Position numbers and translations under genes: made by a program
The notes under the pieces: model-generated
Told to the model about the DNA's origin: nothing
The model's database searches: none
The model's input: only the letters and a program-made list of their open reading frames with translations
In this document: one piece after another, positions 1,939 through 60,338 of the stretch
Layout of the letters: each line of letters starts with the position of its first letter
Position numbering within the stretch: position 1 is the first letter of the stretch
Origin: Candidatus Kaiserbacteria bacterium RIFCSPLOWO2_01_FULL_50_24
GTDB taxonomy: Bacteria; Patescibacteriota; Minisyncoccia; Phycocordibacterales; UBA2100
Assembly (NCBI GenBank): GCA_001783335.1
Contig: MFLU01000016.1
Span: 688-64,687, forward strand
Direction of reading: 5' to 3'
DNA: 64,000 nt

Positions 1939-1970
1939 ACATACCAACATTCTCAAGTATGTTGGTATGT
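1939..1970. promoter_or_regulatory. Palindrome family O1 copy a (ACATACCAACAT-TCTCAAGT-ATGTTGGTATGT), immediately 3' of regulator R1 and upstream of the ligase-like gene start
   Basis: 12-bp perfect inverted arms with an 8-nt spacer. Identical unit recurs at 2273-2304 and 3863-3894. Confidence 0.5.
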
Positions 1971-1971
1971 T

Positions 1972-2256
1972 CTAGCTACGGCGGAAAGACTGCAGAAATC
2001 GGATAAACATCTTTCCGTACGGCGAGAGCATATGCTCAACAAACCTGCCCCGATACCTCTTGTCGAGCAGTCCGGCAGTATGCAGCCGGCGTGTGTGCTC
2101 CCCGACAGTCTTTTCGTTGACGTCAAGCTCTTCCACAATATCCTCGAGGGTCATGCCTTCTCTGCGCGCCACCGCGAAAAGAATGGAGATGCGGTGATGG
2201 TTGGCCACGCCTTTGATATGCCGCTCCATTTGCTTGGCAGATTTCAAACTTTTCAT
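1972..2256 (-). CDS. ArsR/SmtB-family winged-helix transcriptional regulator, paralog R1
   Basis: MKSLKSAKQMERHIKGVANHHRISILFAVARREGMTLEDIVEELDVNEKTVGEHTRRLHTAGLLDK. The HTH pattern (R.RI.IL...L....Q.TVS.HL..L..AGLV) is shared with three paralogs in the window. Confidence 0.6.
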   Translation of the reverse strand: MKSLKSAKQMERHIKGVANHHRISILFAVARREGMTLEDIVEELDVNEKTVGEHTRRLHTAGLLDKRYRGRFVEHMLSPYGKMFIRFLQSFRRS

Positions 2257-2272
2257 ATCCACGCAGTATACC

Positions 2273-2304
2273 ACATACCAACATTCTCAAGTATGTTGGT
2301 GTAT
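2273..2304. promoter_or_regulatory. Palindrome family O1 copy b, about 15 bp upstream of the R1 start codon (autoregulatory operator candidate)
   Basis: Same 32-bp unit as 1939-1970, with one mismatch in the right arm. Confidence 0.5.
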
Positions 2305-2392
2305 GTATATGATTCAAGAGTGGGGGTCTAAAACGTTATGCTCGGAATTTGGTTCATTGAGAATTACCATAGGAGCACCGTGGAACATCTTC

Positions 2393-2427
2393 CATAAAAA
2401 AACAGGGGGGCGGATTGCTCCGCCCCC
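2393..2427 (-). terminator. Rho-independent terminator of gene 2449..3606
   Basis: GGGGGCGGA-ttgc-TCCGCCCCC hairpin (2405-2427) followed on the minus strand by TGTTTTTTT. Confidence 0.55.
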
Positions 2428-2448
2428 AAAAATTGTCGTGGGGTGAAT

Positions 2449-57900: not shown

Positions 57901-59126
57901 AAACTATCGTATCTATTAGCAGGGTCCCAGAAAAACCACGAGGTGAGACCGGCGTCGTAGGTGGCGCGAATTTGGGCGTCAATGTCGGCGGGCAGATAAT
58001 CCTTGCCGTAATCAAAATCCTGCAACCACGGACGCAATTTTTTCGGGTCATGCACGGGCTTTGCATACACGGCGGGAGTAGAGGTGCCAATACGCTCGTG
58101 CGCGAACGACACAACGGGTGTCGTTGTCGCAAGAGCGCGGCGCACGGCGTGGCTCATGGAGTACTGCACCACCTTATACGGGTCACTATTTGGATTGCCG
58201 AGGCCTAAGAAACTTTTCGGATAATGTGATGGATAGACCATGGGAGCGACGTAATCAAAATACGGAAGCGTGCGCTCCAAGACCTGCCCAATGTTCAGGT
58301 CGTCAACATTCGTCGTCGTCATGCCAAAAAGATCTGCCGACATAACAGCGCCGGTCGGCTTTATTTCTGCGTGAAGATGCCAGAAGAATTTTTCAAGCTC
58401 CCCCGCGTAATCTTTAGAGGGATATACGATGTCCGACATGGGCCCGTCAGATGGCCAGCGAATATAATCGTAATTCAGTTCGTCAAAACCAATCGCGTAG
58501 GACTCTTTTGAAAGCTCTACAATGTAGTCCCAAAACGGCTCGCTGTTTACCGCTACAAAGGAAAGTCCTTTGTAGTCCTTCCACGGCTCGCCGGAGCGGC
58601 TCTTGCTTTGCACCGACTGCTCCGGATGCGCTTTCGCATAAAACGGGTCCTGAAACACCGTGATGCGGCCGATAACGTAAATCCCTTTGTCGTGCAGTTT
58701 CTCTATGAACTCCTTCATATCGCGCGCGCCGCACGCTGGAGAAGTGGAATCCGCGAGCGCTGGATTCTCGGAAGAAAATGAAATCCTTCCAGAGTAGTCC
58801 TTTATGTCAATGATGACCGCATTGAGTTGTGTGTTATCAATGAATTCTACGAGTGAATTGCGGAGCGACGGCGTGCCAACGGCGCACTGCGTCATGTAGA
58901 TGGCATACATCGGCTCCGGCGTCTTAAGGTGCACCGTCTGTGGTTCTACAACAATGACTTCTTCTGGAGTTTCGCGGTCAAATAATGGCGACTGTGTCGC
59001 AAATGCACTTGCAATAAGAAGACGCGCGGGATTCGAGGGGCCCGACACTGTAAAGAGTAGAACAGCGCCGGCGCCTGCGGCGCCGAGTACACAGAACACG
59101 GCTGTTTTAATTGCGGGGAGCATCAT
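57873..59126 (-). CDS. Membrane-anchored putative glycoside-hydrolase-like TIM-barrel protein (GHL/DUF4015-like)
   Basis: N-terminal TM, then a roughly 400-aa domain rich in aromatic and acidic residues (ITVFQDP..., NYDYIRWP). Confidence 0.4.
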   Translation of the reverse strand: MMLPAIKTAVFCVLGAAGAGAVLLFTVSGPSNPARLLIASAFATQSPLFDRETPEEVIVVEPQTVHLKTPEPMYAIYMTQCAVGTPSLRNSLVEFIDNTQLNAVIIDIKDYSGRISFSSENPALADSTSPACGARDMKEFIEKLHDKGIYVIGRITVFQDPFYAKAHPEQSVQSKSRSGEPWKDYKGLSFVAVNSEPFWDYIVELSKESYAIGFDELNYDYIRWPSDGPMSDIVYPSKDYAGELEKFFWHLHAEIKPTGAVMSADLFGMTTTNVDDLNIGQVLERTLPYFDYVAPMVYPSHYPKSFLGLGNPNSDPYKVVQYSMSHAVRRALATTTPVVSFAHERIGTSTPAVYAKPVHDPKKLRPWLQDFDYGKDYLPADIDAQIRATYDAGLTSWFFWDPANRYDSLRQVLKNNQ

Positions 59127-59316
59127 GCTCTGTGGATACCTCCGTTTCCAACCGTCTCTCGCGTTTTGAAACGCGTCGCCTGACCGCAATGCCAAGTGCG
59201 ATTATAAAAATCCCCGCGACGAGAAAAAGCGCGGCATCCCACGTATTCGGAAATCCAAGAAACGGCAGTGCGGCCACAAACGCGCCGGATAGCATGATGA
59301 GAGTGTCAATAGTCAT
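59107..59316 (-). CDS. Small 2-TM membrane protein (hypothetical)
   Basis: 69 aa, two hydrophobic helices then a charged tail. Small-ORF caveat applies. Confidence 0.3.
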   Translation of the reverse strand: MTIDTLIMLSGAFVAALPFLGFPNTWDAALFLVAGIFIIALGIAVRRRVSKRERRLETEVSTEHDAPRN

Positions 59317-59343
59317 ATGAAAGTAGTATACAGCTTTTAGCTT

Positions 59344-60042
59344 TTAGCTTCTAGTGGTCGGTTCAACTATGACAACAAATTCCCCTCGAGCCGCCTTCCG
59401 CTTTTCGAGGTCTAGAGCGAGCTCTGCTGGTGATCCTGTGAGCACTTCTTCGTGGATTTTGGTGAGCTCGCGGGCTATCGTCACGTAGCACTTAGGAGCC
59501 GAGCTATTGAGCTCTTTTAGTAATTTCAATATGCGGTGAGGTGATTCATAGAGAACAACTGGTACCGTGCTTTTTGCTATGTCCCGTACGAATGTTTGCC
59601 TTCCCTTTTTGTGAGGTGGAAATCCCAAAAATACGAACGAGCTCATGTTTGCGCCGGCAACGGAGAGCGCGGCCGTAAGTGCGCTTGGCCCCGGTATTGC
59701 ATCTATTATTGCGCCTGGCAGATTCTCGCGCACATGCGCGACTAGACGCGCGCCTGGATCAGAAATTCCCGGCGTACCGGCATCCGATACATAGGCAACA
59801 TGCTCGCCTGCCAGCAAACGCTCGGAAACTTCTTTTGCTTTTCCTGCTTCTGTCGCCGCATCCAGTCGAAATACAGATTTACGAAGTCCATAATGATTGA
59901 GGAGTTTCAGGGTAACACGCGTGTCTTCGGCGTAAATCACATCACACTCCTTCAAATTCCAAAGGGCTCGAAACGTAATATCGCCGAGATTCCCTATCGG
60001 CGTCGCGACAATTGAAAGCTTGCCTGCTGTATTTTCACTCAT
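59344..60042 (-). CDS. rsmI: 16S rRNA (cytidine1402-2'-O)-methyltransferase
   Basis: KLSIVATPIGNLGDIT...YESPHR tetrapyrrole-methylase fold signature. Confidence 0.8.
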   Translation of the reverse strand: MSENTAGKLSIVATPIGNLGDITFRALWNLKECDVIYAEDTRVTLKLLNHYGLRKSVFRLDAATEAGKAKEVSERLLAGEHVAYVSDAGTPGISDPGARLVAHVRENLPGAIIDAIPGPSALTAALSVAGANMSSFVFLGFPPHKKGRQTFVRDIAKSTVPVVLYESPHRILKLLKELNSSAPKCYVTIARELTKIHEEVLTGSPAELALDLEKRKAARGEFVVIVEPTTRS

Positions 60043-60045
60043 ACG

Positions 60046-60312
60046 TTATGCTAATATACTCAAGAATTTAAGCACTCGATGGGCACGCGACGTAAGCTTG
60101 TGCCTAACAGCGGTTCCTTCATTGCGTTTCAGAACGAGACCGGCAATCGCAAGACGGCGAATATGTTCGGCCACAGTCTTATGATTCGTTTTTGTAGATG
60201 ACGCTATCTCTTCTACAGAGAGCTCCGGTTCACGCCTCAATAGTTCCAAGATCTGTATCCTGCGATGGTTCGAAAATCCTCTCACCAATCGTTCGAGCCT
60301 GCGATATTCCAT
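60046..60312 (-). CDS. ArsR/SmtB-family regulator, paralog R4
   Basis: MEYRRLERLVRGFSNHRRIQILELLRREPELSVEEIASSTKTNHKTVAEHIRRLAIAGLVLK. Confidence 0.6.
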   Translation of the reverse strand: MEYRRLERLVRGFSNHRRIQILELLRREPELSVEEIASSTKTNHKTVAEHIRRLAIAGLVLKRNEGTAVRHKLTSRAHRVLKFLSILA

Positions 60313-60318
60313 ATCCTT

Positions 60319-60338
60319 ATACTTAAATTCTTAAGTAT
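60319..60338. promoter_or_regulatory. Palindrome family O4 (ATACTTAA-attc-TTAAGTAT) 7 bp upstream of the R4 start
   Basis: 8-bp perfect arms. A related copy at 60055-60071 overlaps the last codons of R4 (...LKFLSILA) and lies about 15 bp upstream of the rsmI start. Confidence 0.45.

Follow-up and report, generated by a model that had tools for sequence, protein, structure and literature searches.

Putative sensor-less ArsR-type autoregulators of Patescibacteria bracketed by their own long inverted repeats

The 64-kb stretch of DNA from Candidatus Kaiserbacteria (Patescibacteria, or candidate phyla radiation, CPR) analysed in this work, referred to below as the window, encodes four small paralogous ArsR-like proteins, R1-R4, each with a long palindrome of its own type (O1-O4) near both ends of the gene. 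Our results point to a lineage-wide and apparently undescribed variant of ArsR-type autoregulators. The model that we favour, with a probability of about 0.65, is that R1-R4 belong to a Patescibacteria-wide family of sensor-less ArsR autoregulators that recognise their own long inverted repeats, the 5' copy serving for occlusion of the promoter and the 3' copy as an auxiliary operator. An earlier note on this DNA had proposed that the four genes form a switchboard for surface-glycan variation, for which we find local support only.

R1-R4 are paralogous proteins with the ArsR fold

All four minus-strand open reading frames (ORFs) proposed in the earlier note are present at their coordinates (Table 1), and their products align over the full length, with 22 invariant columns, G-x-x-N-H-x-R among them. 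The pairwise identities are only 38-57%, therefore the duplications are old. A tblastn search found no fifth paralogue in the 64-kb window. Four copies in 64 kb nonetheless represent a local enrichment, as the sequence flanking relatives elsewhere contains about one extra paralogue every 120-160 kb. A hypothetical protein identical in sequence to R4 is encoded in Candidatus Kaiserbacteria RIFCSPHIGHO2_01_FULL_50 (GCA_001783485.1).

The hidden Markov model search, a check on the claim that these are ArsR-type DNA-binders, assigned all four proteins to the Pfam family HTH_5 (PF01022) with scores of 28.3-33.3 bits, above the cut-off of 22 (R1: E = 4.6e-8), and the fold agrees with this assignment. 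The AlphaFold2 (AF2) monomer model of R1 (predicted local distance difference test score, pLDDT, 88.3) exhibits the topology a1-a2-a3-a4-b1-b2-a5, with helices at residues 7-16, 20-31, 37-44, 48-60 and 79-92 and strands at 64-69 and 72-77. Foldseek searches with this model reported CadC, SmtB, CzrA and HlyU on top (template modelling, TM, scores 0.75-0.84), with PagR and NolR also among the matches, while the closest PDB protein by sequence is HlyU (3jth, E = 3.9e-9).

Cys residues are absent from R1, R2 and R4, and no column of the family alignment contains an invariant Cys. The alpha-5 Asp/His/Glu metal site is not conserved in that alignment, the only invariant His residues being those of NH-x-R, the recognition helix and the wing. 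The ArsR/SmtB metalloregulator model NCBIfam NF033788 gives 35-50 bits for R1-R4, below its cut-off of 55. The lack of conserved ligand residues and the sub-threshold scores rule out membership in the metal-sensing ArsR/SmtB subgroup, and because neither Cys nor alpha-5 ligands are conserved, we regard R1-R4 as sensor-less ArsR-like proteins.

Each regulator gene is bracketed by its own palindrome

One copy of the respective palindrome lies just upstream of each of the four genes and another at or near the stop codon, as the earlier note had claimed. From dinucleotide shuffles, 0.00-0.07 matches are expected by chance per palindrome family O1-O4, and 16 strong palindromes were found in the window compared with ~0.2 in shuffles. 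The copy numbers of the note (three of O1, two of O2, four of O3, two of O4) were reproduced with corrections as to quality: two O1 copies are exact 32-mers, but in the one that precedes R1 a single nucleotide is inserted; the upstream O2 copy and the second O4 copy, inside the R4 coding region, are degenerate; and the perfect O3 palindrome is a 30-mer rather than a 28-mer.

Table 1. Regulator genes and associated palindromes in the window
Feature	Position	Strand	Description	Remarks
R1	1972..2256	minus	94 aa, ArsR fold	recognition helix NEKTVGEHTRRL; ORF, Pfam, AF2, Foldseek
R2	23572..23877	minus	101 aa, ArsR fold	recognition helix NQKTISEHIRRL; ORF, alignment, Pfam
R3	44788..45066	minus	92 aa, ArsR fold	recognition helix GYENASDHIRKL; ORF, alignment, Pfam
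R4	60046..60312	minus	88 aa, ArsR fold	recognition helix NHKTVAEHIRRL; between murC and rsmI
O1a	2273..2305		predicted 5' operator of R1; imperfect, 1-nt insertion	followed by TGG-TATACT on the minus strand
O1b	1939..1970		3' copy for R1, exact 32-mer	begins 1 nt past the R1 stop
O1c	3861..3894		third O1 copy; exact 32-mer at 3862-3893	23 nt past the stop of epimerase gene 3917..4984
O2a	23887..23912		upstream of R2; degenerate, 3 mismatches/22	between TATACT -10-like box (23910-23915) and ATG
O2b	23459..23486		3' copy of O2, ACCCGCACATACTTAAGTATATGCGGGT, good match	87 nt past the R2 stop
I3a	23375..23420		fifth palindrome type, 22-2-22, core TTGGTGTGGGGGTATAC	upstream of the methyltransferase-GtrA gene
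I3b	24016..24050		degenerate I3 copy	~135 nt upstream of the R2 ATG
O3a	45176..45197		second of the upstream O3 copies; 90 bp separate it from O3b	~64 nt past the stop of methyltransferase gene 45262..45999
O3b	45082..45111		predicted 5' operator of R3	perfect 30-bp palindrome
O3c	44786..44821		3' copy of O3; 1-mismatch core at 44795-44812	overlaps the last codons and stop of R3
O3d	48017..48046		O3 copy inside the Glycos_transf_1 domain of GT4 gene 47685..48806	exact 18-nt core
O4a	60319..60338		predicted 5' operator of R4, exact	between TATACT -10-like box (60342-60347) and AAGGA-ATG
O4b	60056..60075		degenerate O4 copy, 3 mismatches/20	in the final 10 codons of R4; 14 nt separate it from the rsmI ATG

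The operator-gene-operator layout is conserved in Patescibacteria

The scan of one genome per GTDB species yielded 370 relatives. The best 80 of these 370 were inspected for their origin, and all come from metagenome-assembled genomes of Patescibacteria, a few of them with implausible automatic labels; among the named protein matches the family was met only in Patescibacteria. It comprises at least 4,136 proteins and, at 50% identity with E<=1e-10, at least 259 clusters, annotated in databases as 'hypothetical', 'ArsR', 'MarR' or 'wHTH'. Most loci of the relatives (denoted by L and a number) contain a long palindrome 0-50 nt upstream of the regulator start. The generic operator consists of two tandem heptamers per arm and can be written as [ACATTCY]N[ACATTCT]-NN-[AGAATGT]N[RGAATGT].

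Among 87 regulators, a palindrome was found on the 5' side in 60, on the 3' side in 62 and on both sides in 48. Within one gene, the 5' and 3' copies share 81% identity in their inner half-sites, compared with 48% between genes, and the two copies match with 0 mismatches in L024, L042, L066 and L075. Orthologues with the same layout and operator type were identified for R2 (L019, L042, L056, L066), R3 (L059, L081, L084) and R4 (L203, L204, both with an O4b-like design), and the murC-R-rsmI synteny is kept in L203; for R1-type relatives no synteny with the genes of the window was found at their loci. The operator-gene-operator unit is a genuine, conserved architecture, present in at least 48 of the 87 relatives, and not a design special to the glycan island of the window but a family-wide trait of Patescibacteria. 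In the representative library, the proteins P0211 (911 aa) and P0248 (467 aa) have six separate matches each to the regulator profile and, judging by these matches, may be tandem arrays of the winged-helix domain.

The note had also considered that such units might be mini-cassettes that have proliferated. They might be mobile or recent in their spread, with the palindromes acting as recombination or terminal-repeat sites, instead of or besides operators. This would accord with the same palindrome at both ends of the gene, sometimes without a single mismatch, with the tie of both copies to the regulator gene and not to its neighbours, with the great variation of R1- and R3-type neighbours among genomes, and with the presence of four paralogues in 64 kb. 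However, in the neighbourhoods of the relatives no recombinase, integrase or transposase is consistently adjacent, synteny is kept for the R4 type (murC-R-rsmI) and in R2-type clades (penicillin-binding protein or Mur ligase, R, tRNA), proteins identical to those of the window were met solely in the same context (~20 contigs each), the paralogues are anciently diverged, and wherever the C-terminus is encoded by the 3' copy, that copy deviates from its 5' counterpart in a systematic way. The scan of 2.9 million viral contigs revealed zero relatives, which speaks against a phage or mobile origin, and the check for presence or absence of individual cassettes in relatives showed no polymorphism. 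With no recombinase association, no relatives on viral contigs and synteny kept, we consider proliferating cassettes very improbable.

Recognition helix residues covary with the operator core

The recognition helix of the family can be described as N-x-K-T-x-x-E-H-x-R-R-L, and in ~90 relatives, by raw counts, its variable residues covary with the core of the operator. Helices of the type N-[FMILV]-K..S (hydrophobic residue in position 2, Ser in position 6) go with the core ATTCT in almost all of ~45 cases, N-Q-K (Gln in position 2) with ATAC in 8/8, N-E-K..G (Glu or Pro in position 2, Gly in position 6) with A(A/T)ACT in most cases, and GYENASDH with GTTTTGCAAAAC in 4/4, L081 and L084 included. 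The same relationship emerged from the opposite direction, when the outer arms of O1 were searched in the metagenomes of the Joint Genome Institute (JGI) and the adjacent regulators were inspected: after near-identical loci had been collapsed, ~11 of 13 distinct regulators next to O1-type sites carry the R1 helix NEKT[IV]GEHTRRL.

Because helix residues covary with the operator core, direct and paralogue-specific binding is the best reading of these data. Each paralogue does have its own palindrome type, and of the orthogonal repressor/operator pairs envisaged in the note, cognate and largely distinct pairs are what the covariation best fits. Full orthogonality is nonetheless over-stated: the half-site ATACTTAAG is common to O2 and O4, therefore to speak of complete orthogonality goes too far.

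The 5' copy overlaps the predicted promoter

The 5' palindrome is followed by a -10 box, often TGnTATAAT, with a match of at least 5/6 in 35% of cases and a perfect TATAAT in 17% (8% and 1%, respectively, at random positions). The box is situated only 6-8 nt before the ATG, both in the relatives and in the window. The R1 promoter is composed of O1a, TGG-TATACT (-10 at 2265-2270), 8 nt and ATG, and the R3 promoter of O3b, TACACT (-10 at 45073-45078), 6 nt and ATG. The palindrome is generally situated where a -35 box with its spacer would be expected, except in the R2 and R4 types, whose operator sits between the -10 box and the ATG. A -10 box so close to the ATG suggests leaderless mRNAs, and those of the regulators are probably of this kind. 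A -10-like box 6-8 nt before the ATG, without a Shine-Dalgarno sequence, was also seen in many genes besides the regulators, in the window and at most loci, and transcripts without a leader may be widespread in these genomes. Between gene 2449..3678 and the R1 promoter there is a canonical GC-rich intrinsic terminator (GGGGGCGGAGCAATCCGCCCCC and a T-run, 2406-2427, minus strand); therefore R1 is a transcription unit of its own, and the genome does employ ordinary terminators.

Because the 5' palindrome overlaps the predicted promoter, steric autorepression is the most parsimonious explanation, and R1-R4 are most likely autorepressors. One or two dimers of each regulator would occupy its own long inverted repeat, the 5' copy would cover the -35/spacer region (-10 to +1 in the R2 and R4 types) of its own probably leaderless promoter, and the bound protein would occlude RNA polymerase, resulting in negative autoregulation.

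The opposite sign of regulation would follow if the palindrome stood in for the missing -35 box and the bound dimer recruited the polymerase as a class II activator, with small sets of promoters and positive autoregulation. The centre of R1-type palindromes does lie mostly ~35-40 nt upstream of the predicted start, at the -35 position, the promoters combine good or extended -10 boxes with mostly weak -35 matches, the R2-type 3' palindrome is found just upstream of a -35-like box of a tRNA promoter (centre ~-62) in a class I-like arrangement, and HlyU, the nearest solved relative by sequence, is known as an activator or derepressor. On the other hand, most characterised ArsR/SmtB proteins are repressors, an operator between the -10 box and the ATG (R2 and R4 types) occupies a repressor position, strong TGnTATAAT boxes ought not to require activation, and some dyad centres are good -35 boxes themselves (TTGAGA, 16-17-nt spacer) that would be occluded on binding. 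Activation thus appears unlikely, and we retain autorepression as the preferred mode.

O1-type sites are dispersed among diverse genes

O1-type sites were found in the JGI metagenomes at no fewer than 78 distinct loci. Among the matches listed, 18 of 110 have a regulator gene no more than 120 nt away; most occupy short gaps directly past a stop codon, and a minority, at least 8, lie inside long ORFs. According to Pfam, the genes flanking these sites have diverse housekeeping functions (NUDIX, FolD, TruB, Tmk, DnaG), and those downstream of the regulators encode TspO (8 cases), RadC, GT4, aminoacyl-tRNA synthetase, PMSR, GrpE and release factor, with tRNA genes also present. These tallies exclude a glycan-specific regulon and, because the neighbouring genes are diverse, argue for a general family of local regulators. 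The orientation of the asymmetric O1 centre relative to the -10 box showed no bias at orphan sites (3 versus 4 of 33).

We also considered that the palindromes might be generic elements similar to repetitive extragenic palindromes (REP), or elements that act at the RNA level (hairpins, terminators, stabilisers), and that they are found near the regulators by coincidence. The 78 or more metagenomic loci, mostly without a regulator, typically past stops and in some cases within ORFs, speak for such a role, as do hairpins that would be stable (mean dG ~-17.5 kcal/mol). Yet the type of palindrome goes with the recognition helix of the neighbouring protein, each regulator having two copies, the 5' copies lie upstream of the predicted transcription start and hence would not be transcribed from that promoter, T-runs (>=4 T) follow the 3' copies in just 13% of cases and terminators are not replaced, and loops as short as 0-2 nt suit RNA hairpins badly but are typical of protein-bound DNA dyads. 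We consider this explanation very improbable, and continue to treat the palindromes as putative operators.

The position of the 3' copy follows the regulator's stop codon

The 3' copy is centred at discrete distances from the stop codon (-0.5, +8.5 and +16.5 nt), which are spaced by the heptamer period of 8 nt. The stop (TAA or TGA) itself forms the dyad centre in many genes, and the left arm encodes the C-terminal TF(S/Q)HS; the C-terminal residues TFCKTLE of R3 are encoded by O3c. The distance from the 3' copy to the start of the next gene varies from 4 to 671 nt (median 85). What fixes the position of the 3' copy is the stop of the regulator and not the start of the next gene. Two exceptions were noted: the R4-to-rsmI junction (O4b, TATATT, 10 nt, ATG) does fit a control site of the next gene, and in R2-type clades the 3' palindrome is located at a conserved ~75-90 nt before a tRNA-like gene, with promoter-like boxes in between.

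The tRNA-like sequence GGCCCCATCGTCTA..., a putative tRNA 3' of R2-type regulators, was seen at L021, L024, L042, L052, L053, L056, L060, L064, L065, L066 and L075. The tRNA and Rfam scans of the window gave no matches. The promoter-like boxes between the palindrome and this sequence are TGGAAA and GTACTAT. Upstream of R2-type regulators, inspection of the sequences points to genes for penicillin-binding-protein-like proteins or Mur ligases. A perfect DnaA-box consensus 9-mer, TTATCCACA, is found ~10 nt upstream of the R2-type operators in L021, L065, L075 and L079; the same 9-mer occurs in the window at 63045-63053, adjoining an 18-4-18 palindrome (63005-63044) upstream of murD.

In the favoured model the 3' copy would act as an auxiliary operator, either by cooperating with the 5' site in repression or as a roadblock limiting read-through to the next gene; this is the weakest step of the model. 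Several observations weigh against it or against the model as a whole. There is no enrichment of -10 boxes by the 3' copies (13% versus 8-16% background). The spacing between the 5' and 3' operators is 295-457 bp, and the Rayleigh test revealed no phasing at 10-10.5 bp, with a weak, uncorrected signal at 11.5-11.75 bp only. The palindrome stems are AT-rich, the T-runs after them are as rare as stated above, and terminator-like sites follow regulators in 13% and other genes in 14% of cases, so that terminators are not replaced. With neither -10 boxes nor phasing, T-runs or terminator replacement, looping and roadblock both lack positive support. As regards the 5' side, a site centred near -37 is also a class II activator position, which leaves the sign of regulation ambiguous. 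The covariation was counted without factoring in shared ancestry, and the binding of R1-R4 to their own palindromes is itself a prediction from sequence. O1b and O1c are 80-190 nt from the nearest plausible promoters, and the orphan and intra-ORF O1-type sites are unexplained by simple promoter occlusion.

Three other roles of the 3' palindrome were rejected. Rare T-runs, AT-rich stems and the unchanged frequency of terminators rule out an intrinsic terminator; the lack of -10 enrichment and the variable distance rule out a general promoter or operator of the next gene; and phase-locked looping between the two copies finds no support in view of the missing helical phasing.

We speculate that the unit could be a self-delimiting module, in which the protein binds both ends of its own ~300-bp gene and, when abundant, loops out or roadblocks it via the stop-codon site, so that the mRNA would remain incomplete (non-stop) or no read-through to the neighbour would occur, while the helix/core code would provide insulated parallel copies; the family might then be the main transcription-factor family of Patescibacteria. 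This proposal is tentative and, in our estimation, doubtful.

Putative targets in the glycan island and further palindromes of the window

The Pfam analysis confirmed that the window contains a surface-glycan island, with sugar enzymes (GDP-mannose dehydratase, epimerases, UDP-glucose dehydrogenases, AsnB-like amidotransferases, DegT aminotransferase), glycosyltransferases (GT2, GT4 and GT11), methyltransferases, a flippase, a methyltransferase-GtrA fusion and a Wzy_C/TPR ligase-like protein. The regulators are scattered through this island, as the note stated, with the exception of R4, which lies outside it. Sites associated with glycan genes are those of O1 (the ligase-like gene and gene 2449..3678), O2 together with I3 (methyltransferase-GtrA) and O3d (GT4). 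The suggested glycan switchboard therefore has a local basis in these sites, but elsewhere the family is not glycan-specific; the association in the window reflects the gene content of the island.

As for individual sites, O1b is located ~80 nt upstream of the ligase-like gene (start ~1858, continuing outside the window), while O1c is ~190 nt upstream of the sigma70-like site (3722-3695) of gene 2449..3678 and ~255 nt from its start, which makes the claim of extra copies in the promoters of neighbouring genes too strong for O1c. O1 would bring the ligase-like gene and gene 2449..3678 under R1. The sequence of O2b is identical to the 5' operator of the R2 orthologue in L056; the note placed this copy in the methyltransferase-GtrA promoter, but a different palindrome, I3, intervenes before the gene start. 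The right arm of I3a ends in TATACT, followed on the minus strand by 7 nt and the methyltransferase-GtrA ATG (23366). The minus-strand order is I3b-O2a-R2-O2b-I3a-methyltransferase/GtrA, and because I3b lies upstream of R2 and I3a before methyltransferase-GtrA, the pair of O2 sites with R2 is nested within the I3 pair. No cognate regulator for I3, a type that the note does not list, was identified in the window. O2b together with I3 would control the methyltransferase-GtrA gene. The O3 copy reported within a GT4 coding region was confirmed as O3d (19-nt arms 89% complementary), and would be a site of the same protein, R3, inside that gene. O4b is followed on the minus strand by TATATT (60053-60058), 10 nt and the rsmI ATG (60042), and would bring rsmI under R4.

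Six further strong palindromes have no assigned role (50692-50738, 43602-43631, 18055-18081, 52038-52065, 26371-26399 and 51397-51422); they include a perfect intergenic 22-3-22 palindrome, also found in L087, and a perfect 30-bp one in the GT4-like ORF 42775..43893. An imperfect inverted repeat of ~150 nt (44478-44626) has I3-like arms (ACCCCCACACCTATTGAG / CTCAATAGGTGTGGGGGT) and an O3-like core (GTTTTTGCAAAAC) at its centre, and its predicted RNA fold reaches -57.7 kcal/mol (z = -5.8). It is positioned just upstream of the minus-strand ORFs 44176..44574 and 43903..44166, which by their sequences are candidates for a DinJ/RelB-type antitoxin and a RelE/ParE-type toxin, the antitoxin ORF having no Pfam match. 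Another palindrome, TTCTCTTATTCGCGCGAATAAGAGAA, occurs at 62526-62551 within a murD-like ORF. Its core TTATTCGCGCGAATAA returns in unrelated CPR loci (L084-L086 at ~9910, L129, L141, L169, L171, L188), and this recurrence suggests a binding site of another conserved factor.

Comparison with known regulatory systems

Autoregulated ArsR-type repressors with palindromic operators are textbook knowledge, and the long repeat of the family resembles the 12-2-12 inverted repeats that serve as operators of SmtB and CzrA. R1-R4 share with SmtB, CzrA and CadC the HTH_5 domain, the same fold (TM ~0.8), their small size, likely autoregulation and, at their own promoter, a long imperfect inverted repeat whose centre measures 0-2 nt. 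They differ from these proteins in lacking a conserved Cys or alpha-5 metal site and in scoring below the cut-off of the metalloregulator model, in the tandem heptamers in each arm and the second operator at the stop codon, and in the presence of several paralogues with divergent operators per genome, with named matches only in Patescibacteria. HlyU (Vibrio), NolR, PagR and SdpR are likewise sensor-less proteins of ~90-100 aa that bind AT-rich palindromes; however, the identity is only ~20-25%, and those are single-copy regulators of virulence or symbiosis genes, for which we know of no described operator-gene-operator layout.

Two operators for the same protein that bracket the regulator or target gene are found in lambda CI (OL/OR around cI-rex), lac O1-O2 and gal OE-OI, at distances of a few hundred bp to 2.4 kb, where the distal site strengthens repression. 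Those systems involve other protein families, whereas the distal site of the present family is placed at the stop of the regulator itself, 295-457 bp away, with no phasing detected. The C proteins of restriction-modification systems and their C-boxes offer another parallel, with a tiny autoregulator, a palindromic box at its own, often leaderless, promoter, control of the next gene as well and many specificity variants. In contrast to the winged-helix proteins described here, which have no linkage to restriction-modification genes, C proteins are linked to them, use an Xre-type helix-turn-helix and have no 3' copy of the box. Finally, AspA from Sulfolobus pNOB8 is an ArsR-like winged-helix protein of ~93 aa (PDB match with E ~1e-5) that binds to a palindrome preceding its own gene, but it is a partition adaptor of an archaeal plasmid with ParA/ParB partners, none of which are present here.

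Conclusions

Our search of the literature on regulators of Patescibacteria, CPR and Parcubacteria, with subscription journals thinly covered, found no description of this family. Three features seem not to have been described before: the CPR-wide subfamily whose operator is built of four heptamers, the second operator, conserved at the stop codon, that also encodes the C-terminus, and the readable helix/operator pattern over several paralogues per genome. The tests made do not support the readings as a glycan switchboard or as mobile cassettes, but the broader picture is novel and open to testing.

Knowledge of transcriptional control is almost entirely lacking for the CPR, whose members have tiny genomes with few recognisable regulators and are mostly unculturable. 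The family supplies many predicted protein/operator pairs, a specificity pattern and an unusual stop-codon operator layout. If confirmed, it would show which of the glycan genes in the window (the Wzy-like ligase, methyltransferase-GtrA and GT4) are under local control, it would provide compact and possibly orthogonal repressor/operator parts, and it would allow regulons to be read straight from CPR metagenomes.

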